Assembly (NCBI GenBank): GCA_024225275.1
Contig: JAAEMS010000220.1
Coordinates: 1-41,054 of the forward strand
Direction of reading: 5' to 3'
DNA: 41,054 nt
Source: Actinomycetes bacterium
GTDB lineage: Bacteria; Actinomycetota; Acidimicrobiia; Acidimicrobiales; JAAEMS01
Shown here: positions 730-36,700 of the stretch, piece by piece
Layout: every line of letters starts with the position of its first letter
Position numbering within the stretch: position 1 is the first letter of the stretch
Program-made: the position numbers and the translations under genes
Notes under the pieces: model-generated
What the model was told of the DNA's origin: nothing
Databases searched by the model: none
The model's input: the letters and a program-made list of their open reading frames with translations, nothing else

Positions 730-3315
730 GAGCTCGACATCGAGGGGCGAGACGGTGGCGGCCTGGCCGGGGAGACCGAGCTCGGCGATGGGTGCCGGGC
801 GGGCGTGGTGATAGCCCTGGAGTAGGTTGGCTCCGTAGCCCCGGGCCAGACCGGAGCTGACTGCGCACTCGATGCCCTCGACGATCACGTTCAGTCCCAG
901 GGCGTGGACGAGCTCGATCAGGTTGCGCAGAACCACCTGATCGGACTCACGAACCGCAACGTCGGCGACGAACGACTGGTCGATCTTCACCCCATCGACG
1001 GGCAGGGTCCGGAGACGGGCAAAGGATGAATGCCCGGTGCCGAAGTCGTCGATCCATACCTTGACGCCGATGGCGCGAAGGCCTCCCAGCACCTCGGTGG
1101 CCGCCTCCTGGTCGTCCATGATCATCGTCTCGGTGATCTCGACTGCCAGCCGCTCGGGGGCCACCCTGTGGCGCGACAAGGCGTCGCCGACCCACGCCAC
1201 CAGATCACCCTCGTAGAGGTTCCGGACCGACAGGTTGCACGACAGGATGAGGTGCGCGCCCTGGGCTCCCAGGGCGGCGATCTCGCTGAGCGCTTGGTCG
1301 ATGACCCACCGAGTGAGCGCCTTCATCTGGCCGGAGACCTCGGCCAGCTCGATGAACCGGAGGGGAGGGACGAGTCCCAGCTCGGGATGGTTCCACCGGA
1401 TGAGGGCCTCGGTGCCGGCAACCTCGCCGCTGAGACCATCGACGAGGGGCTGGTGGTGCAGTACCAGACCACCGGTCTCGATGGCTGTCTCGAGCTGATT
1501 GACGAGCTGAAGCCGCTCGCGGCCGAACGGGTCGGCCGTGGCGTCGTAGACCTGATGCCCGAGTCTGCCGGTCTTGGCCTGATACATCGCGACGTCGGCC
1601 TGGCGCATGAGCTCGATGGCGCCGTCGGCGTCGGTCGGGTGCATGGCGATCCCCACGCTGGCCCGGACCCGCAGGCGCAGACCGTCATGCATGACCGGTT
1701 CGCGAATCTGGTCACCGAGGTGCTGGGCCCGCCAGCGGGCGTCGTCGACTCGGGTGTCGGTCAGCACGAGGGCGAACTCGTCGCCTCCGAGGCGGGCGAC
1801 GAAATCATGGTCACCCGCCACTGATTCGAGCCGCTCGGCGATGCTGCACAGGAGCTGGTCGCCGATTTCGTGGCCGAGGGCGTCGTTGACCTCTTTGAAG
1901 TCGTCGAGGTCGATCATGAGGATGGCGGTGGATGTGTTCTGCTCGCGGCCCGCGACAATCGTGCGGTCCAGGGTCTCGACGAAGGCGCGACGGTTGGGCA
2001 GACCGGTGAGCGAGTCGATCCGAGCCAGCTCCTCGAGCTTCTGGGCGGCCTCGACCCGCTCGGTGATGTCCAACACATCGACCGTGTAGGACCCGACCTC
2101 GAGCCGCCGGACGGTGGCCTGATAGATGGTGCCACTCTCACCGAGGATCTCTCCTCGAGCGGGCTGATCGTCCGCACCCATCAGGAGCCGGTTGAGGACT
2201 GCCAGCTCCGGACGCTCGGCCACGAGGATCGGAACACAGCGACCGGTCGGGTCCTCGGACCCCGGGAAGAGATCACGACAAGCTGCGTTGGCGGCGTCGA
2301 TACACAAGCCCCGCTCGTTGCGGACGACGAGGAACTGGCCGACCGGGGAGGTGGCGACCAGGTGGCTGAACCGGTCGGCCTCGGCCGAAGCCTGGAGCTC
2401 GCGGGTGCGATCAGTGATGATCCCGACGAACAGGAGGTGGCGATCCTGGCGGTCCCGGGCCGAGCTGATCCGACTCTCGGCCGTCATCCAGGTGCCGTCC
2501 TTGCGCAGCAGCCGAAACGTCGAGGTGTGGTCGGGCTGGGCGTGGTACGACGCCTTGACCTCAGCTAGTACCCGGGCGAGGTCGTCGGGATGGACGATCG
2601 AGGTCCAGAAGCCCGGCTCGAGCCACTGGTCCACCGCGTACCCGAGCATGCGCTCGGCCGCTGGTGAGACCTTCAGGGCTGACAGCTCGCCGGAACGGCT
2701 GGGCACCTCTTCCCACAACACGGCGTCGACACCCAGCGCGATCTGGCGTTGTTTATCGCTGGTTCGACGGGCGGCCATGTTGAGGCGGATCGATCTCATC
2801 ATGAAGATCATGCCCAGCAGCACGAAGACCGTCAGGGTCTGGCCGGTGGAGACCGAGGCATCCTCCCGAGTGAGGCTGGCGATCGCCGCCCCGGTCACCG
2901 CGAGGTAGGTGGTGATGGCCGGGATGGGCCGGAGGGAAGCGGCCCACCCGAGGCTGGCCACACCGATCAACAGGACGATCAGGGGCGGAAGACCCAGGAT
3001 GGCCAGGGTGATGAGGGCGACACCATCGAGGAGGGTGACATGGGGGATCAGGCGGGGTATGGCCTGGGTGGCGAGGTGTGAGCAGAGGTCGACAAGGGCG
3101 GCGATGATCACCAGAGCACCGGTCTCACCCACGCCCCCCTGCACGACACCCAGACTGGCAACCACGAGCACGGTGTGGCGAAGCCACCACATGATGGAGC
3201 ACAACTGGAGCTGGATCCCCTGATCGGCCGAGTCGTGGGCCGCGAGATCTCGCAGGAGAGTCCGCACCGAGTCGGTGCTCTGAAACCGAGACGGTGTGAG
3301 AGACGGCACGATCAA
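709..3315 (-). CDS. Membrane-anchored PAS-GGDEF-EAL protein (diguanylate cyclase/phosphodiesterase, c-di-GMP turnover)
   Basis: N-terminal hydrophobic helices, a PAS-like region, GGDEF motif (RLGGDEFALV), and EAL-domain motifs (EALIRWNHPELGLVPP, DDFGTGHSS, KIDQSFV). The annotated TTG start at 3315 has no RBS; the true start may be an internal Met near 3192. Confidence 0.85.
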   Translation of the reverse strand: MIVPSLTPSRFQSTDSVRTLLRDLAAHDSADQGIQLQLCSIMWWLRHTVLVVASLGVVQGGVGETGALVIIAALVDLCSHLATQAIPRLIPHVTLLDGVALITLAILGLPPLIVLLIGVASLGWAASLRPIPAITTYLAVTGAAIASLTREDASVSTGQTLTVFVLLGMIFMMRSIRLNMAARRTSDKQRQIALGVDAVLWEEVPSRSGELSALKVSPAAERMLGYAVDQWLEPGFWTSIVHPDDLARVLAEVKASYHAQPDHTSTFRLLRKDGTWMTAESRISSARDRQDRHLLFVGIITDRTRELQASAEADRFSHLVATSPVGQFLVVRNERGLCIDAANAACRDLFPGSEDPTGRCVPILVAERPELAVLNRLLMGADDQPARGEILGESGTIYQATVRRLEVGSYTVDVLDITERVEAAQKLEELARIDSLTGLPNRRAFVETLDRTIVAGREQNTSTAILMIDLDDFKEVNDALGHEIGDQLLCSIAERLESVAGDHDFVARLGGDEFALVLTDTRVDDARWRAQHLGDQIREPVMHDGLRLRVRASVGIAMHPTDADGAIELMRQADVAMYQAKTGRLGHQVYDATADPFGRERLQLVNQLETAIETGGLVLHHQPLVDGLSGEVAGTEALIRWNHPELGLVPPLRFIELAEVSGQMKALTRWVIDQALSEIAALGAQGAHLILSCNLSVRNLYEGDLVAWVGDALSRHRVAPERLAVEITETMIMDDQEAATEVLGGLRAIGVKVWIDDFGTGHSSFARLRTLPVDGVKIDQSFVADVAVRESDQVVLRNLIELVHALGLNVIVEGIECAVSSGLARGYGANLLQGYHHARPAPIAELGLPGQAATVSPLDVELSVVGGG

Positions 3316-3398: not shown

Positions 3399-4472
3399 TT
3401 GGGGGGCGATCCACGGCCACTGGCCGGCGTGCGGGTCATCGAGATCGGGGGTGGGGTCTCGGCTGCCTTCTGCTCCCACCTCCTGGCCGGCCATGGCGCT
3501 CGGGTCGTCCGGGTGGAGGGCCCGGGCGATAGTGTTCTCGATCCTCACCAGGCGACCTATCTCACCGCGGGCACGAGTGGGGTCATCGAAGGGACCGCCG
3601 CACTGGACGAATTGGTGGGACGGGCCGATGTCGTTGTCGATACCCGCCCGCCCGGCTCCCACACTGGCCCTGACTCGATGGCCCTGTGGGAGAGGCGTCC
3701 GGAGCTGGTCGTCACATCGATCACTCCGTTCGGGCTCTCCGGCCCCCACGCGGGACACCAGGCGACCAATATCGTCTCGTTCGCCGCCGGCGGCATCATG
3801 GCCCTGACCGGCGACGCCGACCGACCTCCCCTGCAGACCGGTGGCGATCAGGCCCACATGCTCGGTGGCCTGCACGCCTTCTCGGCCACCACGGCCGCCC
3901 TGTTCGGTGCCCTGGTTCACGGGAGAGGCGACCACATCGAGATCTCGTTGCAGGAGGCGGCCGCCTCCATGCTCGAGCTCTACGCGGCAATGTGGGAGTA
4001 CGACGGGGAGCTCGCGGAGCGGATGGGTAATAGTGTGCGTGCCGAGTGGGGGGTCTACCCGGTGGCCGACGGCTACGCCGGGGTCTGCTGTCTGGGCCGC
4101 CAGATCCCGGCCCTTCTGGACCTGCTCGATACCGATGATCTCGACGAGCAGTTCCTGGACACCACGTATCGGCGCGAGCACAACGACGAGTTGTTGGCCC
4201 ACTTGTTGGGCTTCATGGCTGATCGAACCAAGGACGAGCTGGTGGCACTGAGCCCCACCCATCGGATTCCGTTCGGTGCCGTCCTTACCCCCACCGAGCT
4301 GTTGGCTGACGAGGGACTGGCCCGGCGGGGGTTCTTCGACACGGTCTCCTTCGAGGGGACAGAAGTCAGGGTGCCGGGGCGCCTCGTGCCCGGACTGGCG
4401 TGGGAGCGACCCTCCCATGCCCCGGCCCGCCCGGTCCGCGACATCCTTGCCGAGTGGGGGTCGGCCCGATGA
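3399..4472 (+). CDS. Family III CoA-transferase (CaiB/BaiF fold)
   Basis: N-terminal LAGVRVIEIGGGVSAAFCSHLLAGHGARVVRVE glycine-rich CoA-binding motif. TTG start at 3399 is preceded by a purine-rich RBS (agaggggga). Ends with ATGA overlap into the next gene. Confidence 0.85.
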   Translation: MGGDPRPLAGVRVIEIGGGVSAAFCSHLLAGHGARVVRVEGPGDSVLDPHQATYLTAGTSGVIEGTAALDELVGRADVVVDTRPPGSHTGPDSMALWERRPELVVTSITPFGLSGPHAGHQATNIVSFAAGGIMALTGDADRPPLQTGGDQAHMLGGLHAFSATTAALFGALVHGRGDHIEISLQEAAASMLELYAAMWEYDGELAERMGNSVRAEWGVYPVADGYAGVCCLGRQIPALLDLLDTDDLDEQFLDTTYRREHNDELLAHLLGFMADRTKDELVALSPTHRIPFGAVLTPTELLADEGLARRGFFDTVSFEGTEVRVPGRLVPGLAWERPSHAPARPVRDILAEWGSAR

Positions 4473-5704
4473 AGCAACTGCCGCTGGCCGGGGTTCGCGT
4501 CGTTGACCTCAGCATGATGTGGGCCGGGCCGTACGCCACCAAGATGCTCGCCGAGATGGGGGCCGAGGTGATCAAGGTCGAGTCACCCCGGGCCTGGGAC
4601 AACCTCCGGACCCTGGTGCCTCAGGATCCCGAGCCTGACGACCCGTGGAACTCGGCCTACTACTTCAACGAGTACAACCACCACAAGAAGTCGGTCACCC
4701 TCGACCTGGCCGACGAGCGGGGTCGCCAGGTGTTGTTCCGGCTGCTGGCCCACGCCGATGTGCTCATCGAGAACTACCGGGCCGACGTCATGGACGCTCT
4801 GGGGCTCAGCGAGGATGTGCTCCGGTCCGCCCGCCCCGATCTGGTCCTTGTCTCCATGGCCGGGTTCGGCAAGACCGGGCCTGACCGGGACAATGTCGGC
4901 TTCGGCCCCATCATCGAGATGATGTCAGGGCTCATGTCGCTGACCGGGTATGGCGACGATGGTGTTCCCTACAAGACCGGCATCTCCTACGGCGACCCGG
5001 TGGCAGGGCTCGCCGCCGTCGGGGCGGTGGCGATGGCCCTGATCCAGAGGCGGCGCACAGGCGAGGGGATCACCATTGACCTGGCCCAACGAGAGACCGG
5101 CGCCAAGATGGGGGGTGCGGCCTTCGTCGCGGCGGGCCTCACCGGCTCCGACCCGGTGGTCACCGGCAACCGCAGCCCACGATGGGCACCCCAGGGCTGC
5201 TATCCGGCCCGGGGCGAGGACCAGTGGATCGTCATCTCCTGCACCGACGACTCCGAGTGGGCCGCGTGTGCCGAAGTGGTGGGTCGGCCTGACCTGGCCG
5301 CCCTGTCGCCCGAGGAGCGACTCGAGCGCCACGACGAGCTCGACGAGGCACTGGGCCGGTGGAGTGCGCCCATCGACCCGCGAGTGGCAGTCGACGAGTT
5401 GGAGGCGGTAGGGGTTCCGGCGGGTCGGGTTCTCGACATGCGCACGATCAAGGACGACCCCCACCTCCACGCCCGGGGCTTCTGGGTGAGGATCCCGAAT
5501 CCCAAGATGCGGCCATACCGCAAACACGGAATCGTGTGGCGACTGGTCGAGGCCAACCCACAGCTGACCCGACGGGCCCCGTGGTTCGGTGAGCACAACC
5601 AGGAAATCCTGGGTGATCTGGTCGGGCTCACCGCCGACGAGCTCGACTTGTTGACCTCAGAAGGGATCATTGCCGATGCGCCGTTCGGTGCCTCGGCTGG
5701 GTGA
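4469..5704 (+). CDS. Family III CoA-transferase (CaiB/BaiF fold), second tandem copy
   Basis: MKQLPLAGVRVVDLSMMWAGPYATKMLAEMGAEVIKVESP motif. ATG at 4469 overlaps the upstream stop (ATGA), implying translational coupling. The track ORF start at 4400 is a spurious 5' extension. Confidence 0.85.
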   Translation: MKQLPLAGVRVVDLSMMWAGPYATKMLAEMGAEVIKVESPRAWDNLRTLVPQDPEPDDPWNSAYYFNEYNHHKKSVTLDLADERGRQVLFRLLAHADVLIENYRADVMDALGLSEDVLRSARPDLVLVSMAGFGKTGPDRDNVGFGPIIEMMSGLMSLTGYGDDGVPYKTGISYGDPVAGLAAVGAVAMALIQRRRTGEGITIDLAQRETGAKMGGAAFVAAGLTGSDPVVTGNRSPRWAPQGCYPARGEDQWIVISCTDDSEWAACAEVVGRPDLAALSPEERLERHDELDEALGRWSAPIDPRVAVDELEAVGVPAGRVLDMRTIKDDPHLHARGFWVRIPNPKMRPYRKHGIVWRLVEANPQLTRRAPWFGEHNQEILGDLVGLTADELDLLTSEGIIADAPFGASAG

Positions 5705-7140
5705 GTCGCCGGCGCACTAGGTTTCCCGACATGAGTGAGGACTTCGATCGGGCCCTGGAGGCCGTGCTGTTGGGTTCGGTGCCCGGAGTCACCGGTCTGA
5801 TCGAGGCCGAACGGCTCAGTGGTGGTGCCAGTCAGGAGACCTACCGTCTCCGGGTCGAGACCGACGACGGGCCGGCTGTGCTGGCCATGCGCCGGGCCCC
5901 CGGCGGCGAGGCCCCCGAAGACCTGATGGGCCGGCCGGGGCTGGAGGTCGAAGCCGAGCTCATGCGGATTGCCGGCGACCATGGTGTTCCGGAACCCGTC
6001 GTCCACCACGTTCTCCAGCCCGCCGACGGCATCGGGCCCGGCTTCATCATGGAATGGCTGGAAGGAGAGGCACTGGGCGGACGAATTGTCCGTTCCCCCG
6101 ATCTGGCCGACGTCCGTCCCCACCTGGCCGGGGAGTACGGCCGCATTCTCGCCCGGATCCACGCCATCGACCTCGACGCCACCGGGCTGCGGGCCAAGCT
6201 CACCGAGAAGTCGACGGTGGAGTTCATCCACGAGATGTGGGACCGCTACAAGCAGTACCCCACGCCCCAACCAATGATCGACTATGCCGCCCGCTGGTTG
6301 CTCGATCACCTCCCCCCTGAGCGGCCCCTCACCCTCGTGCACAACGACTTCCGCAACGGGAACGTGATGGTCGACCCCGACGGGGTGGTGGCGGTCCTCG
6401 ACTGGGAGGCCGCCCACATCGGTGACCCGGGCCGCGACCTCGGTTGGCTGTGCACCGCGTCGTGGCGTTTCGGGAGCGACCTGCCGGTAGGGGGGTTCGG
6501 GACCCGCGACCAGCTCCTCGCCGGCTACGAGGCCGAGTCGGGTGTTGGGGTGGACCCCGAGGAGGTGCGTTTCTGGGAAGTGTTCGGCTCGTTCTGGTGG
6601 GCAGTGGGCTGCATCGGGATGGCCGAGCACTACCGCACCGGGCCCGATCAGTCGGTCGAGCGGCCGGCGATCGGTCGCCGCAGTTCGGAGTGCCAGGTCG
6701 ACTGTGTGAATCTGATCATCCCCGGACCGGTGGAGCTGTTGAGCCCGACCCCGGTCGACGATCGTTCCGACATGCCTCGGGCCGACGAGCTGTTGGTCAG
6801 CGTCCGTGACTTCCTGCGCGACGACGTGATGACCGAAACCCGGGGCCGCACGAACTTCCTGGCCCGGGTGGCCGCCAACTCGCTCGACATCCTGTTGAGG
6901 GAGGGGGCGGTCGGGCCCCAGCTGAGTGCCCTCGAGGCCACGATGCTGGCCTCCCTGCTCGATGATCCGCCCCCCTCCGCTTCGGTCTGGGAACTGCGCT
7001 GGCAGCTCGTCGATCAGCTCCGCGACGCCACCATGCCACTCGACCAGTCGGGCCTCACCGACTATCTGCGTACGGCGGTGGTGAACCAGGTGGCAATCGA
7101 TCAACCCCGTTATCCGGGACTGGCCACCGCCCTGGATTGA
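5701..7140 (+). CDS. Phosphotransferase of the APH/choline-kinase family with a roughly 150-aa C-terminal extension
   Basis: Catalytic-loop and Mg-binding motifs LVHNDFRNGNVMVD...VLDWEAAHIGDPGRDLGW. GTG at 5701 overlaps the upstream stop (GTGA); an alternative ATG lies at 5731. Confidence 0.75.
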   Translation: MSRRRTRFPDMSEDFDRALEAVLLGSVPGVTGLIEAERLSGGASQETYRLRVETDDGPAVLAMRRAPGGEAPEDLMGRPGLEVEAELMRIAGDHGVPEPVVHHVLQPADGIGPGFIMEWLEGEALGGRIVRSPDLADVRPHLAGEYGRILARIHAIDLDATGLRAKLTEKSTVEFIHEMWDRYKQYPTPQPMIDYAARWLLDHLPPERPLTLVHNDFRNGNVMVDPDGVVAVLDWEAAHIGDPGRDLGWLCTASWRFGSDLPVGGFGTRDQLLAGYEAESGVGVDPEEVRFWEVFGSFWWAVGCIGMAEHYRTGPDQSVERPAIGRRSSECQVDCVNLIIPGPVELLSPTPVDDRSDMPRADELLVSVRDFLRDDVMTETRGRTNFLARVAANSLDILLREGAVGPQLSALEATMLASLLDDPPPSASVWELRWQLVDQLRDATMPLDQSGLTDYLRTAVVNQVAIDQPRYPGLATALD

Positions 7141-7275: not shown

Positions 7276-7899
7276 ATGGACGACGTGATCTCGGCGTCCT
7301 TCCAGCTGCCCACCCTCGTGTTCACGATCCTCTTCGCTCTCGTTGCCTGCCTCTGGGTGCTGGGTGTGGTCGGGTTCTTCGAAGTCGACCTCGACCTCGA
7401 CCTCGATGGTGGCGACGGCGTGCTCGACGGCGCCCTCCACTCCTTGGGGCTCGCCGGCGTACCCATGGTGGTCATCCTGACTCTGGTCGCGGCCGGTGGG
7501 TGGTTCACCTCGGTGGTGCTCCAGGTCACCGTTCTCGACGGTCGCTCGGGTGCCACCCTTGTTCTGCTCGGCCTGGTCACCCTCGTGGTGGCGTGGCTGG
7601 TCGCCTTCATGTTCGCGGCCGCCCTTGCCCGACCCCTGGGACGAATGATGCGGGTCGCCACCGCCCCCTCGGCCGCCGAGCTGGTGGGCCGGGTCGGCAC
7701 CATTCGGTCGGGTCGGGTTGACACCCGTTTCGGCTACGCCGACGTCGATTGGGCTGACGGGGGTTCGTCTCGTGTCGAGGTGCGCCTCGCTGATACCAAC
7801 GACTCCTTCGGCCCCGGTGACCGGGCTCTCCTCGTCGACTGGGACGTCGACTCCGGTCTATACCTCATCAGCCCTCCGCCCTCCGATCTCGATCTCTGA
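7276..7899 (+). CDS. NfeD-like membrane protein (short form: N-terminal TM helices plus C-terminal OB-fold barrel)
   Basis: ATG at 7276 sits 8 nt after a strong RBS, AGGGAGG (7261-7267). Two or three hydrophobic helices are followed by a beta-rich C-terminus (GRVGTIRSGRVDTRFGYADVDW...VEVRLADTN...GDRALLVDWDVDSGLYLI), typical of NfeD/YqiJ/YuaF partners of SPFH proteins. There is an acidic DLDLDLDGGDG linker. Confidence 0.7.
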   Translation: MDDVISASFQLPTLVFTILFALVACLWVLGVVGFFEVDLDLDLDGGDGVLDGALHSLGLAGVPMVVILTLVAAGGWFTSVVLQVTVLDGRSGATLVLLGLVTLVVAWLVAFMFAAALARPLGRMMRVATAPSAAELVGRVGTIRSGRVDTRFGYADVDWADGGSSRVEVRLADTNDSFGPGDRALLVDWDVDSGLYLISPPPSDLDL

Positions 7900-7934: not shown

Positions 7935-9950
7935 GTGGAAAGCATCATCTCGGCAGCAGTGGTGGTGATCGTCGTACTGCTCGTCGCCCTCCTGGGTATC
8001 GGGCTGATGGTCACCCGCCTCTTCCGCAAGGTCCGCCAGGGTGAGGCCCTGGTCGTGTCGAAGTGGCGTGAGGTGGTCGTGACCTTCACCGGCATGATCG
8101 TCATCCCGGTGATCCACAAGGCCGAGTGGGTGGACATCTCGGTCAAGAACCTCCAGATCGAGCGTCGGGGCAAGGACGGTCTGATCTGTGCCGACAACGT
8201 CCGGGCCGATATCACGGTCGAGTTCTACGTGAAGGTCGACCGCACCGCCGAGGCGGTCATCAAGGTGGCCCAGCAGGTGGGTGCCGACCGGGCGTCTGAC
8301 CCCGAGACCCTGCGCGAGCTCTTCGCCGCCAAGTTCTCCGAGGCCCTCAAGACCGCCGGCAAGCAGTTCGAGTTCGAGTCGCTCTACACCGACCGCCAGC
8401 AGTTCCGCGACGCCATCATCGAGATCATCGGCCAGGACCTCAACGGGTATGTCCTCGAGGATGTCGCCATCGACTATCTCGAGCAGACCCCCATGGACGC
8501 TCTCGATCCCACCAACATTCTCGACGCCGACGGCATCAGGAAGATCACCGAGCGGACTGCCGATCAGCACATCCGCACCAACGACGCCGAGGAACGTGAG
8601 CGGGAGGAGACCTTCCGCCGCACCACCGATGCCGACAAGGCCGTGTTCGAGATGGAACGCGACCGGGCCGAGGCCGAGGCCCGCCAGCAGCAGGAGATCC
8701 GTACCGTCCAGGCTCGCTCCGCGGCCGAGGCCCGAGTGGTCGAGGAGACCTCCCGCGAAGAGGCCGAGTCGGCCCGCATCTCCACCGAGCAGGGGCTGGG
8801 TGTGGCCGACCAGAACAAGGACCGCGAGATCGCCCTGGCCGACGCCAACCGGGAGCGGGTCATCGCCGTACAGACCGAAGAGATCGAGCGCGACCGATTG
8901 CTCGCCGTCGTGGGGCGCGAAACTGCGGTCGCCGAGGCCGGCAAGGAGAAGGAATCGCGGGCCCGTGAGCTGTCCGAGGTGGAGAGGAGCCGGGTCGAGG
9001 CCGACAAGGCCGTGGCTGAACAGGAAGAAGCCATCGCCACCCTGCGGGTTGTCGAGGACGCCCAACGCACCGCCACCGCTGAGGTGAAGATGGCCGAGGG
9101 TTCCGCCCAGGCTGCCTTCGTCTCCCGGGTGCAGGAAGCCGAGGCCGACAAGGCCGCCGCCGGCAGCGAAGCCGAGCGTCGCACCATCCTCGCCCGGGCC
9201 GAGGCCGAGGCATCGGACCAGGAGATGGCTGCCGCCAAGCGCCGGGCCGAAGGGGCCCAGGCCGAAGCAGCGGCGGGTGGCCTCGCTGAAGTCGAGGTCG
9301 AGACCAGTCGGGCTGAAGCCATTCGGCAGGTGGGTACGGCCGAGGTCGACATCGAGCGCCAGCGGGCCGAGGCCATCCGGGACACCGGCGTGGCCGAGGG
9401 TGACGCCACCAAGGCCCGTCTCGCCGGCGAAGGTGAGGGTCTCGAGGCCAAGGCCACCGGTGTGGGGGCTATGACCGAAGCCGGTCGTGGTCACGAGGAG
9501 TTTCGCCTCGGGCTCGACGCCAACAAGGAGATTGCCTTGGCCGGCATCGACGCCAAGGCCGACGTGGCCCGGTCGGCGGCAGCCGCTCTGGGCGAGTCGT
9601 TGTCCAACGCCGACATGCAGATCGTGTCCGACGAGGGCATCGTCGAACGTATCCTGTCGGCGGCCGGGCATGGTCAGGCCATCGACGGGTTCGCTACCAA
9701 CGGCGACACCGCTCGTCAGCTCCTGTCGCCCTACCTCGAAGGCGACGGCAACTTCGTGGCCGACGTGGCTGCCGGTCTCGGCGGCCTGGGTGCTGCCGGT
9801 CTCCGTGACCTCACGATCGCCGACTTCATCGGCCGTCTCGGCCGCCGGGTCGACGACGGGGGAGCGCTCGACCGTCTGCGGGCAGCCATCGACGACGCGG
9901 GTATCGCCGACCTGCCTGTCGGTGACCTGCTCGACGACGGGGCCAAATAG
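7935..9950 (+). CDS. Flotillin-like SPFH/band-7 protein (YqiK/FloT type)
   Basis: GTG start sits 9 nt after AGGAG. N-terminal TM helix, SPFH core (GEALVVSKWREVVVTFTGMIVIPVIHKAEWVDISVKNLQIERRGKDGLICADNVRADITVEFYVKV), then a roughly 300-aa E/A/R-rich coiled-coil flotillin tail. Confidence 0.9.
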   Translation: MESIISAAVVVIVVLLVALLGIGLMVTRLFRKVRQGEALVVSKWREVVVTFTGMIVIPVIHKAEWVDISVKNLQIERRGKDGLICADNVRADITVEFYVKVDRTAEAVIKVAQQVGADRASDPETLRELFAAKFSEALKTAGKQFEFESLYTDRQQFRDAIIEIIGQDLNGYVLEDVAIDYLEQTPMDALDPTNILDADGIRKITERTADQHIRTNDAEEREREETFRRTTDADKAVFEMERDRAEAEARQQQEIRTVQARSAAEARVVEETSREEAESARISTEQGLGVADQNKDREIALADANRERVIAVQTEEIERDRLLAVVGRETAVAEAGKEKESRARELSEVERSRVEADKAVAEQEEAIATLRVVEDAQRTATAEVKMAEGSAQAAFVSRVQEAEADKAAAGSEAERRTILARAEAEASDQEMAAAKRRAEGAQAEAAAGGLAEVEVETSRAEAIRQVGTAEVDIERQRAEAIRDTGVAEGDATKARLAGEGEGLEAKATGVGAMTEAGRGHEEFRLGLDANKEIALAGIDAKADVARSAAAALGESLSNADMQIVSDEGIVERILSAAGHGQAIDGFATNGDTARQLLSPYLEGDGNFVADVAAGLGGLGAAGLRDLTIADFIGRLGRRVDDGGALDRLRAAIDDAGIADLPVGDLLDDGAK

Positions 9951-9952
9951 CG

Positions 9953-12900
9953 GTGACGGACACGTCCCCGCCGCCTGCGGGGAGCCCGCCGTCAGAGCTT
10001 GGCGCCCAGAGCGACGACACCGCTGGGCCCAGCGAGGCGGACGAGCTGAGGGGGGGTTCCTATGAGCTTCTCCGCCGCCGGCTGGCCAGCCAGGCCCGCC
10101 AGTTGGTCAGTGGCGCCGAGGCCGTCGACAGTCGTCGGATCGCCACCTTCTCGTCCAGCCGGCTGAAGCTGGTCGGGTCCGACCGATTGAGCACCGACGT
10201 CATCGGCCAGGCTCGCGACATCGTGCGCATCGGCGACCTGCTCCTTTTCGGCTACAACGTGGGTCTCGACCTGGCCAGCGTCGAACCCGAGCACGTCTTC
10301 GCCCTGTACCGGGCCGGTGGCGCCGGCGGGCGACCCCATCCCGAGCTCGTGCCCGTGGACCCCTCCGATCCCGCCTACTTCCTGGGCGATCCGGTGTTCC
10401 GGGAGGAATTTGCCAAGCTGTACCGGTTCTACGGCAAGGCCCGATTCATCGACCTGAGGGCGTCGACCACCCAGTTGCTGGCCGCCTTCCAGGTGGGGGA
10501 CCGCATCAGCGATGTCGTAGTCCTGCGCTGGGCGGTGGCCGACGACGGTTCGGTTGCGTTCATCGACAGCCGCGGTGACCGCGACTACACCTGGCCGCCG
10601 GCCCATGACTTCATGTGGACCGTGTGTGGCCGTGAGGACCAACGAGCGGGCGCCCACCCCACAGTGGTGGTCGACAACGAGGTATTCGTCGGGTTCCGCA
10701 ACGGCCGGCTCCAGCTCCGCACCGAAGACGGCAGCCCCGGCGGCCGCGTCGTGGTCGACGAGGAGGTGGAGGCACCCGGCCAGTCGTTGGCCGATGTCGA
10801 GGTGGCCTGGTTCGGCCTGGGCGATGTCTTGTTGCTCCGGGTCTCTCTCTACGGCGAGGCCGAACGCTTCTATGTGTTCGGTCGCCGCAGCGGTTCGGGT
10901 ACACGGGTCGATGCCATCGGTGCCGCTTGTCGGATCCTGCCCGGCGAAGACGGCGTGGTCTTCCCCGGTGGGTATCACCTGGCCTCCACCGGTACCCGGG
11001 TCTTCGAGGTCGATGCCCAGGAGATGGTCTTCGAGGAGGCCGTCGTCTCCCCGAACGGTGAGGACGTCCTGTACGTCTTCCACCGGCCCGAGAATGGCGA
11101 CTATCTGCTGTTGCCCTACAACCTCGTGCGCAAAGAGATCACCCAGGTCATCCCCTGTCATGGCTTCGGGGCGTTCGGCGATGGGTCGATGGTGTTGTTC
11201 CGGGGCGGGCCCGACGACAGTGCTGCCGCCCGCGCTCATCCGGTCCAGTGGTGGGAGACACCGTTCACCGATCCTGACATCGAGCAGGTGGTGGGCGACG
11301 ACCGGTGGATCGTCACCGTCGGCAACCCCACCCTCGTTCGAGGTCTTGCCGATGTGTACGACCTCGGTCGGTTGATTGATCAGGCCGAGAGTTCGGAGCG
11401 CACCTGGGAGGCAATCATCGTCGCCGCCCGACGGGCTCTGGACACCCACCTGTGGTTCGGCGACGACGAGGCCGGCGGTCTTCACGACCAGCTTCGGGGC
11501 CTGCTCGGCACCGCGGGCCAGATTGTCGACGAGTACGCCAGGGTCCGCCGTCTGCGGGGTGAGGCGGTCCGCCGGACCGACGAGGCCCGAATGGGAATCC
11601 GCCGCACCATCGACTCCGCCGGCCAGGCCGGCGAACCGGGTGCCGTGGTCAGCGCCCTGGGTGAACTTCAGAGGGCGCGGGGCGAGACCTCGCTGTTGAG
11701 CGACGTGCCCGAGGTCAGCGACGCCGACGTGAGTGCCCTCATCGACGAGCTCGACGGTGCCCTGGCCCAGCTGGCCGACCGGGCTGTGTCGGTCCTGGAC
11801 TCCGATACGGCCTTCGCCCGCTTCACCGATCAACTCGACCTCCTCGTGACCGAGGGCACGGCCGCCCCCACCACAGCAGAGGTCGACTCGGTGGGGGAGC
11901 GGCTCACCACCCTGCGAACTGACTTGGGTGCCGTGGTCGACGCCGTCACATCGCTCGATGCCGGTGACCCCACCGTGCGGACCCGGATCGTGCGTCGGGT
12001 CGCCGACACGACCGCAGCCGCCAACCGAGCCCAAGCCGTATTGGCCGGTCACCGGCGGGGTCTCTCCGAGAGCGAATCGGCCGAGGCCTTCGACGCCGAG
12101 CTGGCCCTGGTCGAGCAGACCCTGGCCGGCGTGGTCGTCTCGCTGGAAACCCCCGAGGACTGCGACGCCGAGCTGGCCCGCCTCCTCGTGAACGTGGAAC
12201 GCATCGAGGCCAGGTACGCCGACGATCCTGAGCGGGTGGCCAGCGTGGCTGAGCAGCGTGAACGGGTCGCCGAGATCATCGGCAACCGACGCACTGAGCT
12301 CGCCGACGCCCGCGCCCGGCGAGCTGCCCGCATCACCGAAGCCGCCAACCGGCTACTGGCCACCATCGGACGACGGGCGGCCGAGGTCGACGACGATGCC
12401 GCGGTGGCTGGGTTCTTCGCCGCCGACCAGATGGTCTCGCGGGTCCGGTCGTTGGCTGATGACCTCGATGAGCTCGGCGAGCGGGGGTTGGCCCAGGAGA
12501 TCCGCACGGAGCTGGCCGCAACCGCCGAGGAGGCTGCCCGCCAGGTTCGGGACCGCAAGGCGCTGACCGCCGATGACGGGTCGATCGACTTCGGGGGATT
12601 CCGGTTCGCGCCGAACCATCAGCCCTTCGACGTGGTGCTCAGCCCGGCCGGTGACGGCCGTATCGGGGCCGCGGTGACCGGTACCGAGTACCGGGCCGAT
12701 GTGACCGAGCGGCTCGGCGAGTTCGCCGATCTGCTCGACCAGAGCGTTCCCTCGGAGACACCCACGATCTACCGGGGTGAGTATCTGGCCTGGGTCGTGT
12801 TGGCCGAGGCCGAGAAGGCCGATGGAGTGGCCGAGCTGATCTCGCGGGCTGCGGCCCCCGATCGGATGGTCGACCATTGCCGGGCCGCGGCCGAGCGTCG

Positions 12901-14872
12901 CCACCTCGACGGCTACCAGCGGGGTGTCCACGACGACGACGCCGCCCGGATCCTGAGCTCGGTGCTGCCTCACAGCGCGGCGGAGCCCCGCCTGCGTCAT
13001 CCGGGTTGGGTACGGGCTCAGGCCCGGATGTGGCTGGCCGAGCTGGGCCCCGACCACGTCGATCAGCTCGCCGCCCGAATCGGTGGAGCCTGCACTGCGA
13101 GGCAGCGGCTCGGGGCCAGCGGCCCTCTCGATGACGTCGTCGCCGCCCTAGAGGCCGATGCCCCCCGTTCGGCCCCCTGGTACCCGGGCGACGGCCACTG
13201 GTCAGCGGTGCTCGGCTATCTCGTCGATCAGTTCGAAGATGGTCCGGTCCCCCTCGTTGCCGCCAGCACTGCTCGCACACTGGTGACCCGGCTCAACGAA
13301 CGTTTGGGCCGGGAGGGAGTGGCCGATCTCGAGGCGTCCATGACCGGTTCCCCCGATCCGCTGGCTGCCGCCCGAGCCTGGGTGGCTGCCTACGTCGAGG
13401 GCGACGGGTCTCCGGAGTCGTTGGCACTGGACATCGACGAGGCCGCCGGTCTGCTGGCGGCGCCCCACGTCGAGACCGTCGACGCCACCCACCCCGGTGG
13501 GATCGCCATCACCGGTCTCGCCGGTGATCACCCCCGGATCGAAGGAGGCCAGCTCCTGGTCCGTCTCGACGAGCTGGCCGAACGAGTCGGCCGCCATCAC
13601 CGCACCATGGAGGACCGTTGGCCCCGCTACGCCGAGGCTCGCCGCCGGGTGATCGCCGAGGTCAGGGCCCAGGTCGATGTCGACGAACACCGGCCCCGGG
13701 TGATGGCGGGTTTCGTTCGCAATCGGCTGATCGACGAGGCCCTCCTGCCCCTGGTCGGGGCCAACCTCGGGCGCCAGCTCGGAACCGTCGACCAGACCGA
13801 GCTGGCCCGGTCGGGCCTGATGGTCATGATCAGCCCTCCCGGCTACGGCAAGACCACCCTCATGTCGTGGGTGGCGGACCGCCTCGGCCTGCTCATGGTC
13901 AAGGTGAACGGCCCGGCTCTGGGACAGGACACCACGAGCCTGGACCCCGCGGCCGCTCCCAACGCCGCGGCTCGGGCCGAAGTCGAGAAGATCAATCTGG
14001 CCTTCCGGTTCGGGCGGAACGTGATGCTCTTCCTCGATGATGTGCAGTACACCGCGCCGGAGCTGCTCTCCCGCTTCATCCCGCTCGCCGACGCCACCCG
14101 CCGCATCGAGGGTGTGATCGATGGCGAGCCCACGACCTTCGACCTCCGGGGCAAGCGGTTCTGCGTGGTCATGGCCGGCAACCCCTACACGACCGGTGGC
14201 CGCTTCGAGCTGCCTGACATGCTCGTGAACCGATCCGACGTCCACAACCTTGGTGACGTCGCCGATTCCCATCGGGTCGCCTTCGAGCTGTCCTATCTCG
14301 AGAACAGTCTGACGGCGTGCCCGACCTTGGCCCCCCATGCGGCCAAGCTGGCCGACGACATCGAGCTGGTGCTGGCGATGGCCGACGGTCGTCGGGCGGT
14401 CGCCAGCGACGGTCTGAACCATCGGTGGGACTCATCAGAGCTTGGCGACGCGGTGCGGACCATCCGCCACCTGCGTCGAGCCCAGGAGGTTCTGCTCCTG
14501 GTGAACGAGTCCTATGTGCGCTCGGCGGCGATGCGCGACGAGGACCGGGTCGTTCCTCCCTTCCTACTTCAGGGGTCGTACCGGAACATGGCCCGGCTGG
14601 CCTCGCGGATCGTGCCGGTGATGACCGACGACGAGCTCGATGTTGCCGTCGACGAGCACTATCGGGCCGAAGCCCAGACCCTCACCGAGAAGGCCGAGGA
14701 GAACCTGTTGGCCCTCGCCGCCAAACGAGATCGGCTGGCAGACGCCGACCAGGTGAGGTGGGACGCCATCACCGAGCGGTGGGCCGGCATGGCCGCCGCG
14801 GCTGATCCGGCGGGCCGGATCGCTGAAGCGATCGATCGCCTGGCCGGCCGGATGGAGTCTGATACCCGGTAG
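9953..14872 (+). CDS. Giant (1639 aa) cytoplasmic protein with one C-terminal MoxR/AAA_5-type AAA+ ATPase module; N-terminal roughly 1290 aa of unknown function
   Basis: GTG start 2 nt after the flotillin stop. Single P-loop ISPPGYGKTT (about aa 1296), Walker B MLFLDDVQY, then IEGVIDGEPTTFDL and FCVVMAGNPYTTGGRFELPDMLVNRSD. These align well to the MoxR pattern [53 protein letters not shown]. No TM segments and no second P-loop. The N-terminal region is beta-rich, followed by a long A/E/R/D-rich helical region. Confidence 0.8.
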   Translation: MTDTSPPPAGSPPSELGAQSDDTAGPSEADELRGGSYELLRRRLASQARQLVSGAEAVDSRRIATFSSSRLKLVGSDRLSTDVIGQARDIVRIGDLLLFGYNVGLDLASVEPEHVFALYRAGGAGGRPHPELVPVDPSDPAYFLGDPVFREEFAKLYRFYGKARFIDLRASTTQLLAAFQVGDRISDVVVLRWAVADDGSVAFIDSRGDRDYTWPPAHDFMWTVCGREDQRAGAHPTVVVDNEVFVGFRNGRLQLRTEDGSPGGRVVVDEEVEAPGQSLADVEVAWFGLGDVLLLRVSLYGEAERFYVFGRRSGSGTRVDAIGAACRILPGEDGVVFPGGYHLASTGTRVFEVDAQEMVFEEAVVSPNGEDVLYVFHRPENGDYLLLPYNLVRKEITQVIPCHGFGAFGDGSMVLFRGGPDDSAAARAHPVQWWETPFTDPDIEQVVGDDRWIVTVGNPTLVRGLADVYDLGRLIDQAESSERTWEAIIVAARRALDTHLWFGDDEAGGLHDQLRGLLGTAGQIVDEYARVRRLRGEAVRRTDEARMGIRRTIDSAGQAGEPGAVVSALGELQRARGETSLLSDVPEVSDADVSALIDELDGALAQLADRAVSVLDSDTAFARFTDQLDLLVTEGTAAPTTAEVDSVGERLTTLRTDLGAVVDAVTSLDAGDPTVRTRIVRRVADTTAAANRAQAVLAGHRRGLSESESAEAFDAELALVEQTLAGVVVSLETPEDCDAELARLLVNVERIEARYADDPERVASVAEQRERVAEIIGNRRTELADARARRAARITEAANRLLATIGRRAAEVDDDAAVAGFFAADQMVSRVRSLADDLDELGERGLAQEIRTELAATAEEAARQVRDRKALTADDGSIDFGGFRFAPNHQPFDVVLSPAGDGRIGAAVTGTEYRADVTERLGEFADLLDQSVPSETPTIYRGEYLAWVVLAEAEKADGVAELISRAAAPDRMVDHCRAAAERRHLDGYQRGVHDDDAARILSSVLPHSAAEPRLRHPGWVRAQARMWLAELGPDHVDQLAARIGGACTARQRLGASGPLDDVVAALEADAPRSAPWYPGDGHWSAVLGYLVDQFEDGPVPLVAASTARTLVTRLNERLGREGVADLEASMTGSPDPLAAARAWVAAYVEGDGSPESLALDIDEAAGLLAAPHVETVDATHPGGIAITGLAGDHPRIEGGQLLVRLDELAERVGRHHRTMEDRWPRYAEARRRVIAEVRAQVDVDEHRPRVMAGFVRNRLIDEALLPLVGANLGRQLGTVDQTELARSGLMVMISPPGYGKTTLMSWVADRLGLLMVKVNGPALGQDTTSLDPAAAPNAAARAEVEKINLAFRFGRNVMLFLDDVQYTAPELLSRFIPLADATRRIEGVIDGEPTTFDLRGKRFCVVMAGNPYTTGGRFELPDMLVNRSDVHNLGDVADSHRVAFELSYLENSLTACPTLAPHAAKLADDIELVLAMADGRRAVASDGLNHRWDSSELGDAVRTIRHLRRAQEVLLLVNESYVRSAAMRDEDRVVPPFLLQGSYRNMARLASRIVPVMTDDELDVAVDEHYRAEAQTLTEKAEENLLALAAKRDRLADADQVRWDAITERWAGMAAAADPAGRIAEAIDRLAGRMESDTR

Positions 14873-15875: not shown

Positions 15876-17090
15876 ATGACCGACATCGAGACCGTCCGTA
15901 CCGAGGTGAGGGACTGGCTGGCTGAGAACTGGAGCGAGGCTCTCGACCGGAGGAGCTGGCTCGACACGGTCATCGACTCGGGCTGGGCGGCACCGAGCTG
16001 GCCCGAGCAATGGCACGGCAAGGGACTCGACCCGGCCATGACCAGCGTCGTGATCGACGAGTTCCGGCGGGTCGGTGCCACCGACACGGGGATGGACAAG
16101 ACCCACCTGTGGGCCAACACCGTGCTGGCGTTCGGTAGTGACGACCTGAAGTCGAGGTTCGTCCGCCGACTCATGCTCGGTGACGTCGACATGTGTCTGC
16201 TGTACAGCGAGCCCGGGGCCGGTTCCGATCTGGCGGGCATCCAGACCCGGGCCGTGCGCGACGGCGACGAATGGATCGTCAACGGCCAGAAGGTGTGGAC
16301 CTCGGGTGGTCGGGCGGCCGAGTTCGCCCTGCTCATCACCCGTACCGACTGGGACGTGCCCAAGCACCGGGGCATCACCTTCTTCTGGTTCCCGATGAGA
16401 CAGGACGGGGTCGAGGTCAGGCCCCTGCGCCAGGCCACGGGCGACGCCCGGTTCAACGAGGTGTTCATGACCGATGCCCGGGTCCCCCACGAGAACATGC
16501 TCGGCGACGAGAACAACGGCTGGATGGTGCTCCAGACCGCGCTGGCCTACGAGAGAGCGGTCATGGGCGAGAACCAGCGTCGCCGGCGCGGCCAATCCGA
16601 TGACCAGGCGGTTCGATCGGCCGAAGACGAGAGGTCGGCGCCCGTACCCGACCTCTCCCTGGTCGAGCTGGCCCGCACTGTCGACAAGAACGGTGATCCT
16701 TCCATCCGGCAGGGGCTGGCCCACCTCCACTCGATGGTCCAGGTGAACGAGTGGAACAACCTGCGGGCCAAGGCCGAGCTGGCTCAGGGCACGTCGTCGT
16801 CGGTCGTCTCGCTGGGCAAGCTGGCCATGAGCGGCATCCTGCACACGGCTGGCAGCCTCCAGGAGTCGATCCTGGGGGCCGAGGGGATGATCGGCGGCAC
16901 TGATTCGCCCCGGGCGGCAGACGCCGCCTACTCCCTCCTCAACGCCTTCTTCACCTCGATCGGGGGCGGCACCGACCAGATCCAGCGCAACATCATCGGT
17001 GAGCGCATCCTGGGCTTGCCCAAGGAGCCCGAGCTCGACAAGACGATGGCCTTCCGTGATGTCCCCAAGCCCGACATGGAGCGCCCCTGA
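15876..17090 (+). CDS. Acyl-CoA dehydrogenase (ACAD/FadE family)
   Basis: ACAD N-terminal and middle-domain blocks (LYSEPGAGSDLAGIQTRAVRDGDEWIVNGQKVWTSGG) and a C-terminal helical domain, within a 404-aa protein. Confidence 0.9.
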   Translation: MTDIETVRTEVRDWLAENWSEALDRRSWLDTVIDSGWAAPSWPEQWHGKGLDPAMTSVVIDEFRRVGATDTGMDKTHLWANTVLAFGSDDLKSRFVRRLMLGDVDMCLLYSEPGAGSDLAGIQTRAVRDGDEWIVNGQKVWTSGGRAAEFALLITRTDWDVPKHRGITFFWFPMRQDGVEVRPLRQATGDARFNEVFMTDARVPHENMLGDENNGWMVLQTALAYERAVMGENQRRRRGQSDDQAVRSAEDERSAPVPDLSLVELARTVDKNGDPSIRQGLAHLHSMVQVNEWNNLRAKAELAQGTSSSVVSLGKLAMSGILHTAGSLQESILGAEGMIGGTDSPRAADAAYSLLNAFFTSIGGGTDQIQRNIIGERILGLPKEPELDKTMAFRDVPKPDMERP

Positions 17091-20406: not shown

Positions 20407-21516
20407 GTGTCGGGCAGACTGGGGGCCATGACCAACGCGGCGACCACCAGCTCGGCCCTGGGTCTGGCCGTGGCCGCGGGGGTACCGGTGCTGCTCTGGG
20501 GGGCACCGGGTACCGGCAAGAGCTCGGCGGTGCGAGCCATGGCCGAATCCATCGGCTGGCCGTGCGAGGTGGTCATCGCCTCGATCCGTGAGCCCACCGA
20601 CTTCGCCGGGCTCCCGGTTGTGGTCGACGATGGCATCCGTTTCGCCCCGCCCACCTGGGCCACCAGGCTGGCCGAGTCCGAGCGCGGGCTTCTGTTCCTC
20701 GACGAGATCTCCACCGCGCCACCCGCCGTCCAGGCGGCCCTCCTTCGGGTGGTGCTGGAACGGGTCGTGGGCGATCTGGATCTGCCCGACAGCATCGCCG
20801 TGGTTGCGGCCGCCAACCCGCCTGACCAGGCGGCCGATGGCTGGGACCTGTCAGCCCCCCTGGCCAATCGCTTCTGCCACCTCGACTGGGACGTCGATCC
20901 GGCGGCGGTGGCCGAGGGTCTGGCCGGCGGATTCCCCGAGCCCACCGTTCCCCAGCTGGCCGGTGAATGGGAGAAGCGCATCACCACCGCCCGGGCCCAA
21001 GTGGCTGCGTTCCTGGTGGTGCGGCCCGGGCTGGTGTCCGCACCGCCCACCGAACGGGCCGCTGCGGGCCGAGCCTGGCCCAGTCCCCGATCCTGGGAGA
21101 TGACGGCCCGCCTCCTGGGCGCCGCCCAGGTCGCCGACTCCGACGGCCCGGTTCGTGCCGCCTTGGTCACCGGATGTGTCGGCCAGGGGGCGGGTATCGA
21201 GTTCCTGTCCTGGCTCGACGAGCTCGACCTGCCCGATCCCGAGGCGGTGCTGGCCGACCCGGGCTCGTTCGTCCTGCCCGAGCGGGGTGACCGGGCCTAC
21301 GCGGTGCTCACCTCGGTGGCCGCCGCGGTGGCGGCCGACACCACGCCCGAACGGTGGGCCGCCGGTTGGGTGGTACTGGGCCAGGCCGGCGAAACCGCTC
21401 CCGATGTTGCCGCGGTGGCTGCCCGCATCCTGGCCCGGTGCCGGCCCGAGGGTGCCTCGGCCCCACCCCAGGCCGCGGCCTTCGTACCCCTCCTAGAGCA
21501 GGCCGGACTGCTCTGA
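20407..21516 (+). CDS. MoxR-family AAA+ ATPase (AAA_5)
   Basis: Walker A LLWGAPGTGKSS, PTD motif (REPTDFAGLP), Walker B LLFLDEISTA, QAALLRVVLER, sensor ANP (VVAAANPPD) and LANRF. GTG start at 20407; alternative ATG at 20428. Confidence 0.85.
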   Translation: MSGRLGAMTNAATTSSALGLAVAAGVPVLLWGAPGTGKSSAVRAMAESIGWPCEVVIASIREPTDFAGLPVVVDDGIRFAPPTWATRLAESERGLLFLDEISTAPPAVQAALLRVVLERVVGDLDLPDSIAVVAAANPPDQAADGWDLSAPLANRFCHLDWDVDPAAVAEGLAGGFPEPTVPQLAGEWEKRITTARAQVAAFLVVRPGLVSAPPTERAAAGRAWPSPRSWEMTARLLGAAQVADSDGPVRAALVTGCVGQGAGIEFLSWLDELDLPDPEAVLADPGSFVLPERGDRAYAVLTSVAAAVAADTTPERWAAGWVVLGQAGETAPDVAAVAARILARCRPEGASAPPQAAAFVPLLEQAGLL

Positions 21517-21520
21517 CCGG

Positions 21521-35514: not shown

Positions 35515-35551
35515 CAAGACCAAGATCACACCGACACAAGGGACACACCAC

Positions 35552-36700
<1,149 letters not shown>

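Follow-up and report, generated by a model that had tools for sequence, protein, structure and literature searches.

What function is served by a 1639-amino-acid (aa) bacterial protein that carries a single AAA+ ATPase module towards its C-terminus, and with which partners does it act? This question is raised by the open reading frame (ORF) at positions 9953-14872 (plus strand) of contig JAAEMS010000220.1 from an Actinomycetes bacterium; the whole 41,054-nucleotide (nt) stretch of DNA that was analysed is herein termed the window. The ORF is the third gene of a set encoding (i) a YqiJ/YuaF (NfeD2)-like membrane protein, (ii) a YqiK-type flotillin (SPFH2), and (iii) the ATPase itself, a soluble protein of DUF3686-DUF7902-AAA+ architecture. 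On balance, we favour the interpretation that the protein is the cytoplasmic ATPase subunit of this three-gene module, in which it would remodel flotillin assemblies. An earlier, sequence-only reading of the same DNA had concentrated on the ORF itself; the real conserved partners of the ATPase, i.e., the flotillin gene and the YqiJ-like gene, lie just outside it.

The flotillin module and its distribution

The first gene of the module (7276-7899, plus strand) specifies a membrane protein of 207 aa that resembles YqiJ/YuaF (NfeD2), has three hydrophobic segments by hydropathy, and carries an OB-like domain at its C-terminus. When 20 orthologues of this protein were aligned, hhalign matched the alignment to E. 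coli YqiJ (probability 84%, E 7e-6), with one of the aligned orthologues matching YqiJ_N and one matching YqiJ_OB. The second gene (7935-9950, plus strand) encodes a 671-aa YqiK-type flotillin, comprising an N-terminal membrane anchor (seen as a strong hydrophobic segment by hydropathy), a Band_7 domain (Pfam, E 3.2e-11), and a long Ala/Glu-rich coiled coil; by BLASTP it is 29% identical to E. coli YqiK over 475 aa (E 2e-36). These YqiK and YqiJ homologies thus identify the first two genes as the known NfeD2-SPFH2 pair. Such pairs form the two-gene operons yqiJK of E. coli and yuaFG (floT) of B. subtilis (Hinderhofer et al. 2009, PMC2636767), to which the first two genes of the window are homologous and identical in order, whereas those model operons are without the third (ATPase) gene and the window flotillin is about 120 aa longer than YqiK. 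That third gene (9953-14872, plus strand) begins 2 nt after the flotillin gene ends (TAG stop to GTG start); it is co-transcribed with the flotillin gene and is probably translationally coupled to it. Since no transmembrane segment was detected in its 1639-aa product by hydropathy (19-residue maximum 1.34), the ATPase is cytoplasmic.

A scan of one genome per species put the number of species genomes that encode a relative of the ATPase at 581 or more, drawn from the Actinomycetota, Myxococcota, Gammaproteobacteria, and Planctomycetota, with further family members in Bacteroidota, Acidobacteriota, and Vibrio. Synteny was then compared across 83 loci, i.e., those of the 80 best ATPase matches together with loci L001 and L002 and the window. 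Of the 76 loci with enough upstream DNA, 74 have a flotillin gene upstream of the ATPase gene and on its strand; the gap between the two has a median of 26 base pairs (bp) and is <430 bp in 70 loci, and a YqiJ-like gene is found upstream of the flotillin gene in about 65. The same gene order is found in Ilumatobacter, Streptomyces, and Flammeovirga (loci L001, L002, and L084), the last of these being a member of the Bacteroidota in which the Pfam domains also agree with those in the window. Linkage of the three genes extends over at least five phyla. A fourth conserved gene (PspA, CesT, VWA, or nuclease) was sought around the 83 loci, and only lineage-specific neighbours were encountered; the gene families conserved around the ATPase are three only (YqiJ-like, flotillin, and ATPase, in about 80 loci). 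Pairwise distances among the ATPases and among the flotillins are correlated (r = 0.93, Mantel p <= 0.001), which fits inheritance as a unit. Given this near-constant linkage to a flotillin gene, the ATPase most likely acts upon flotillin assemblies, rather than serving in DNA repair or as a chaperone of the MoxR-VWA kind. A functional partnership between ATPase and flotillin we consider highly probable.

Additions to the module were seen in particular lineages. One Streptomyces subclade encodes a 663-aa TrkA_N-domain protein ~40 bp downstream of the module (L018 11507-13498, plus strand), and in Streptomyces a divergent PucR-type regulator (GGDEF_2 + HTH_30) is encoded upstream of it (L063 15212-16285, minus strand); these lineage-specific neighbours are present in about 8-16 Streptomyces loci.

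The operon context of this family has been described before. In a computational study, Ravi et al. (mSystems 2024, PMC11237479) reported that CesT/Tir-PspA operons also encode three further proteins, including a three-transmembrane YqiJ/YuaF protein, in the gene order YqiJ/YuaF, Band-7+coiled-coil+flotillin, and beta-propeller+coiled-coil+AAA-ATPase; the tabulated operon of Dokdonia donghaensis reads CesT_Tir, YqiJ-YuaF, Band-7+coiled-coil+flotillin, and Betapropeller+Coiled-coil+AAA-ATPase. Abbreviated operons (flotillin, YqiJ/YuaF, and sometimes the ATPase) were noted there to be widely distributed, and a chaperone-like function in assembling a sub-membrane complex was proposed, with a link to PspA/CesT operons. 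The window corresponds to the abbreviated form without PspA; no PspA, CesT/Tir, or defence genes were found within its 41 kb. In Flammeovirga yaeyamensis, a 160-aa protein without a Pfam match is encoded directly upstream of the YqiJ-like gene (L084 6453-6935, plus strand) and may be the CesT/Tir-like chaperone of the Bacteroidota operons described by Ravi et al. Their paper gives no Pfam name, structure, or experiment for the ATPase. Literature searches under the names DUF3686, PF12458, and DUF7902 returned no paper, with Ravi et al. reached only via broader terms, and the ATPase goes unmentioned in papers dealing with Pseudomonas SPFH proteins and with the evolution of SPFH proteins. The 1639-aa protein is another member of a catalogued family with a published operon context, and as a discovery the window adds little.

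Architecture of the 1639-aa protein

According to the sequence-only reading, the protein consisted of roughly 1290 aa of unannotatable sequence followed by the ATPase, in a domain combination belonging to no nameable family. That description does not hold. Pfam PF12458 (DUF3686) covers aa 51-499 (10103-11449; all features of the protein lie on the plus strand) at 435.8 bits versus a cut-off of 25 (E 1.9e-130; profile positions 2-447 of 448), and PF25472 (DUF7902) covers aa 620-702 (11810-12058) at 56.8 bits versus a cut-off of 26 (E 2.7e-15). A profile search of the N-terminal regions, as had been advised with that reading, thus finds a confident multi-domain family, DUF3686 + DUF7902 + AAA, which is large, thousands of relatives having already been deposited in public databases, and is labelled "DNA repair ATPase" by NCBI. 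Almost every DUF3686 domain sits N-terminally in a protein of 1550-2036 aa (533 clusters, 50% identity), and the architecture of the family is therefore fixed; the window protein shares both this length and the N-terminal position of the domain.

Structures were predicted by running AlphaFold2 on family alignments, yielding one model for aa 1-1200 (mean predicted local distance difference test score [pLDDT] 86.6) and one for aa 1180-1639 (mean pLDDT 87.3), with blade counts and AAA+ clade inserts read from the DSSP secondary-structure strings of these models. In the first model, a disordered N-terminus (aa 1-29) and a helix (aa 35-66) precede ~28 strands at aa 72-435, a propeller-like core with a pLDDT of roughly 90. 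When the N-terminal model was compared with the Protein Data Bank (PDB) by Foldseek, a propeller was present in most matches with E <1e-3 (range 1e-5 to 1e-3), the propeller-containing matches being prolyl oligopeptidases, YncE, EED, DDB1, Vps18/Vps11, IFT-A, and CPLANE. On the strength of these mostly propeller-containing matches, the β domain is modelled as a divergent β-propeller, probably with seven blades by strand count. DUF3686 is accordingly a β-propeller-like domain by structure prediction, and not an ATPase.

Across 58 homologues, the propeller (10166-11257) displays unusually many invariant polar residues, namely D89, D187, R210, R227, E270, Q277, D281, E302, R305, R318, D320, N368-G-E-D371, H429, Q432, and W434. 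This conservation suggests a binding or even catalytic pocket.

The middle of the protein is modelled as ~700 residues of long helical bundles. A first helical region (aa 451-871; 11303-12565), within which DUF7902 is contained, has very long helices at aa 510-557, 673-730, and 759-810, as bundles or coiled coil. It is separated by a small β subdomain (aa 878-916; 12584-12700), predicted at a lower pLDDT of 52-74, from a second helical region (aa 920-1170; 12710-13462) bearing a conserved GY..GVHD.DA motif near aa 987-997. Both structural impressions formed from the sequence alone, i.e., a β-rich N-terminal region (aa 1 to about 430) and a long helical middle (about aa 450-1250), are thus borne out by the models.

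The single AAA+ module (aa 1258-1478; 13724-14386) is supported by Pfam, AlphaFold2, Foldseek, and motif content. The aa 1180-1639 model has a standard AAA+ α/β core, a helical lid, and C-terminal helices. Along the module lie the Walker A motif SPPGYGKTT (aa 1294-1302; 13832-13858), the Walker B motif MLFLDDVQ (aa 1358-1365; 14024-14047), a β-hairpin (aa 1384-1397; 14099-14152, with RIEGVIDGE at aa 1384-1392), the sensor-1 motif VVMAGNP (aa 1405-1411; 14165-14185), and the arginine-finger candidate LPDMLVNR (aa 1420-1427; 14210-14233). AlphaFold2 places the hairpin between helix α3 and the sensor-1 strand, and RIEGVIDGE had indeed been taken for a β-hairpin insert from its letters alone. The module is followed by a C-terminal helical extension of ~145 residues (aa 1494-1639; 14432-14869), in which a near-invariant PPFLLQGSYRNM motif (14555-14590) stands out in the alignment.

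The window protein has all four family motifs, PPGYGKTT, DD[IV]Q, MAGNP, and PDML.NR, and every motif listed in the sequence-only reading (GYGKTT, FLDD, RIEGVIDGE, VVMAGNP, and LPDMLVNR) is likewise recovered; all of these are invariant among about 70 orthologues. The ATPase is the most conserved block of the 1639-aa protein, and by this conservation its nucleotide-binding motifs appear intact and under strong selection. Two of the absences noted earlier likewise stand: the protein has one P-loop (aa 1294-1302), inside a contiguous AAA+ fold, and is thus distinct from midasin and dynein, which have several concatenated AAA+ modules; and no VWA domain was matched by Pfam. In every family member examined, Walker B reads hhhhDD[IV]Q, as opposed to the usual hhhhDE of AAA+ proteins, a substitution that may point to slow, regulated, or switch-like hydrolysis.

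Competing explanations and a proposed mechanism

Several other accounts of this protein have to be weighed, beginning with whether the ORF is real. Long spurious ORFs are common in high-GC (guanine-plus-cytosine) genomes, and several long overlapping ORFs do occupy the opposite strand of 9953-14872; an artefact could thus be envisaged, either as a frameshift or assembly fusion or as a spurious ORF. Those opposite-strand ORFs are, however, high-GC shadows. The 1639 aa are encoded by one ORF with a GTG start, in which GC at the third codon position is 0.84 overall and 0.78-0.87 per 150-codon block, uniform along the whole ORF and with the frame constant throughout. Alignments with 21-58 homologues (1600-1700 aa) span the entire protein and give no sign of a frameshift or fusion, and large internal gaps are absent (21-sequence alignment); in 120 homologues the query coverage is 96-100% and the identity 40-86%; and hundreds of genomes encode collinear full-length homologues (1600-1900 aa). 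NCBI also holds a 100% identical protein (P0001) from a metagenome-assembled genome, named "AAA family ATPase [Actinomycetia bacterium]", and AlphaFold2 is confident across the domains. From the uniform codon-position GC and the full-length alignment it follows that the ORF is neither a shadow nor a fusion artefact, and the frameshifts or gene fusion that the sequence-only reading had named as grounds for abandoning it were not seen. The artefact explanation is refuted by the conservation data, its probability being practically nil. A more substantive proposal, also that of the sequence-only reading, is a MoxR-class chaperone ATPase, for which a VWA/MIDAS partner would be encoded elsewhere or would be replaced by the protein's own N-terminal domains. 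The motif-by-motif alignment with MoxR on which this was based is reproducible: by hhalign, the family profile aligns with the neighbouring MoxR (20407-21516) over 122 columns (55% probability, E 1.2e-4), spanning the P-loop, hairpin, sensor-1, and arginine finger, including the "...NP...L.NR" segment. A single AAA+ module, the pre-sensor-1 hairpin, and this segment are shared with MoxR proteins (NorQ, CbbQ, RavA); NorQ and CbbQ are structurally similar and give the best target-normalised template modelling (TM) scores in Foldseek (0.55-0.61). In many family members there is a precomputed AAA_5 match, and JGI names some of them "MoxR-like ATPase". Class membership does not follow, however. The window protein scores 16.3 bits with AAA_5 (cut-off 22) and has no AAA_3 match, its match above threshold being PF00004 (AAA; aa 1290-1370, 25.7 bits versus a cut-off of 21.2). 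By Foldseek, RuvB (7.6e-8) equals or exceeds NorQ (2.1e-7) and CbbQ (~2e-7), with dynein, Vps4, Lon, MCM, and Cdc6 next; by hhalign, the family profile scores higher with E. coli RuvB (95% probability, for the Walker A-to-Walker B stretch only) than with the neighbouring MoxR, and reaches only 2% with RavA. Neither the single protein nor the family profile gave anything past P-loop matches when searched against PDB sequences, those of the profile being confined to RuvB and NVL in their P-loop region. The neighbouring MoxR gave no significant BLASTP match (E 0.62), and the AAA+ module is not a recent duplicate of it; the window protein is, moreover, five times longer than MoxR proteins. The MoxR clade is characterised by a helix-2 β-hairpin insert plus the pre-sensor-1 hairpin, whereas in the AlphaFold2 model aa 1320-1337 (strand β2 to helix α2) form a loop and a short helix, with no helix-2 hairpin predicted. 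This insert classification reportedly goes back to Iyer 2004 and Erzberger & Berger 2006. No conserved VWA gene lies near the ATPase in about 80 loci, and the MoxR at 20407-21516 has a VWA-like partner of its own (21521-22714). With AAA_5 below threshold and RuvB scoring as well or better, membership of MoxR cannot be taken as established; a divergent AAA+ of the pre-sensor-1-hairpin group is the most fitting designation for the module, and the missing VWA partner is a puzzle only if the protein is a MoxR. We thus judge a MoxR-type chaperone role to be improbable.

Database nomenclature points elsewhere, to an SbcC/SMC/Rad50-type DNA-repair ATPase: the window protein matches both PF12458, described in Pfam as "ATPase involved in DNA repair", and PF25472 far above threshold, and "DNA repair ATPase" is the NCBI product name. 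Apart from the name, this explanation can draw on a weak SbcC match in the coiled coil (E 0.023, 12.6 bits versus a cut-off of 478.5) and on RuvB being the nearest solved AAA+ by sequence profile, although the latter match is limited to the Walker A-to-Walker B segment. In place of an ABC-type head split by a coiled coil, the protein has one AAA+ module towards its C-terminus; neither the protein nor its conserved neighbours showed a nuclease, helicase, or DNA-binding domain, nor was an SbcD/Mre11 partner detected; and the invariant partners are two membrane proteins. NCBIfam and PADLOC scans of the ATPase yielded trivial P-loop matches plus the weak SbcC coiled-coil match, and it is most probably from such compositional coiled-coil similarity that the name has spread. 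It is unsupported and probably misleading, and a function in DNA repair is very hard to credit. The remaining alternative is an anti-phage or conflict system, in which the propeller would sense an invader and the protein would act at the membrane with flotillin and YqiJ, through abortive infection or membrane protection. Consistent with this, the distribution is patchy over distant phyla; one copy is plasmid-borne and one Streptomyces genome has two copies (P0097, and P0054 and P0091); an IS21 helper gene adjoins one locus; weak P-loop-only matches to the defence ATPases IetA/IteA occur; and some proteobacterial versions of the published operon include a phospholipase D gene (PMC11237479). Yet IetA was the sole PADLOC-DB v2 model matched by the ATPase (17.2 bits, across 39 residues of the P-loop), and the flotillin gave no match; none of the three core genes has an effector domain (nuclease, protease, TIR, etc.); the gene neighbourhoods in the window and at the other loci examined have a metabolic or housekeeping content and are not defence islands; and the ATPase is highly conserved (mean pairwise p-distance 0.45) and lacks a hypervariable sensor of the sort that typifies conflict systems. 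A defence role is thus also something to which we attach little likelihood.

The interpretation that we favour, an ATPase subunit acting on flotillin assemblies, can be put in mechanistic terms. The AAA+ modules would oligomerise, probably as a hexamer, with the propeller and helical part putatively docking onto the flotillin/YqiJ assembly on the cytoplasmic side of the membrane. The binding and hydrolysis of ATP would then drive assembly, disassembly, or client extraction/release at flotillin cages, and such remodelling would serve membrane or envelope-stress maintenance. Coupling of an SPFH membrane scaffold to an AAA+ machine is a recurring theme, as in HflK/C-FtsH and prohibitin-m-AAA protease, and these systems share with the window the genetic coupling of SPFH scaffold and AAA+; by analogy, the ATPase might be to its flotillin what FtsH is to HflK/C, the m-AAA protease to prohibitin, or Vps4 or PspF to ESCRT-III/PspA. 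The likeness has its limits in that FtsH systems have an HflK/C-type SPFH partner, whereas that of the window ATPase is of flotillin type (SPFH2), and in that the AAA+ module is not of the classical FtsH type, with neither a transmembrane segment (hydropathy) nor an M41 peptidase match (Pfam). The flotillin-remodeller model agrees with the chaperone-like role proposed in PMC11237479. Remodelling of flotillin cages as the specific mechanism is put forward tentatively, as something short of an even chance.

Pressed further, the same model would cast this family as the first whose dedicated task is the ATP-driven remodelling of flotillin (SPFH2) cages: a coat-protein-like propeller/helical scaffold would dock on the flotillin/YqiJ dome, and the AAA+ ring would open, dismantle, or unload that dome, much as Vps4 does for ESCRT-III. 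This extended version we hold to be rather unlikely. In a variant of it, the conserved polar pocket of the propeller would bind a membrane-stress ligand or client and so gate the ATPase.

Several observations weigh against flotillin remodelling, or temper the evidence for it. No aromatic pore loop is present at the loop where classical unfoldases carry one, and its absence together with the DD Walker B fits a slow or switch-like ATPase equally well as a threading motor. A conserved C-terminal docking motif was sought in the flotillin and none was found, the tail being poorly conserved. The 80 loci compared for synteny are those of the best ATPase matches, a sample skewed to Actinomycetota and Myxococcota, and the ATPase-flotillin distance correlation can largely reflect shared species phylogeny. 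The published operon is matched by architecture and gene order in Flammeovirga, and not by the exact Dokdonia accession, the Dokdonia protein of the published table not being among the 120 family matches listed. Finally, no experimental work on any family member was found in the literature.

Genomic surroundings and significance

Elsewhere in the window, the MoxR ATPase at 20407-21516 (plus strand) is canonical, with matches to AAA_5, bpMoxR, and AAA_3. It is followed after 5 nt by a gene (21521-22714, plus strand) for a DUF2201_N putative metallopeptidase + DUF2201 VWA-like protein, the only VWA-like gene in the window. This MoxR-VWA pair (20407-22714) is a separate system, unrelated to the 1639-aa ATPase by the BLASTP comparison given above. 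The window further contains four coenzyme A (CoA)-transferase family III genes, one of them for a double-domain 828-aa protein, along with two APH-type kinase genes and one acyl-CoA dehydrogenase gene (gene set at 3399-5704, 27363-29849, 35069-36700, 5701-7140, 29881-30906, and 15876-17090); it is a lipid or steroid-type catabolic neighbourhood. Two ORF calls, 34585-35514 and 35069-36700 (plus strand), overlap by ~445 nt, and the CoA-transferase match in the second starts at residue 165; the true start of that ORF is probably well downstream of its first possible start codon. In the window (709-3315, minus strand), and likewise in Ilumatobacter coccineus (L001 1939-4905, plus strand), a gene for a PAS-GGDEF-EAL cyclic-di-GMP protein lies upstream of the module at a distance of a few kb, and this shared neighbour may reflect local synteny within Acidimicrobiia or a regulatory link.

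With respect to annotation, the lesson from this family is that the label "DNA repair ATPase" is not to be trusted and that DUF3686 is, as modelled, propeller-like and not an ATPase. More broadly, the function of bacterial flotillins, as well as their assembly and disassembly, is still unsettled. Through its tight genetic linkage to flotillin in hundreds of genomes, including those of the tractable Streptomyces and Myxococcus, this soluble and conserved ATPase offers an experimental handle on these questions, and the function of the whole family is thus a worthwhile experimental target for flotillin biology.

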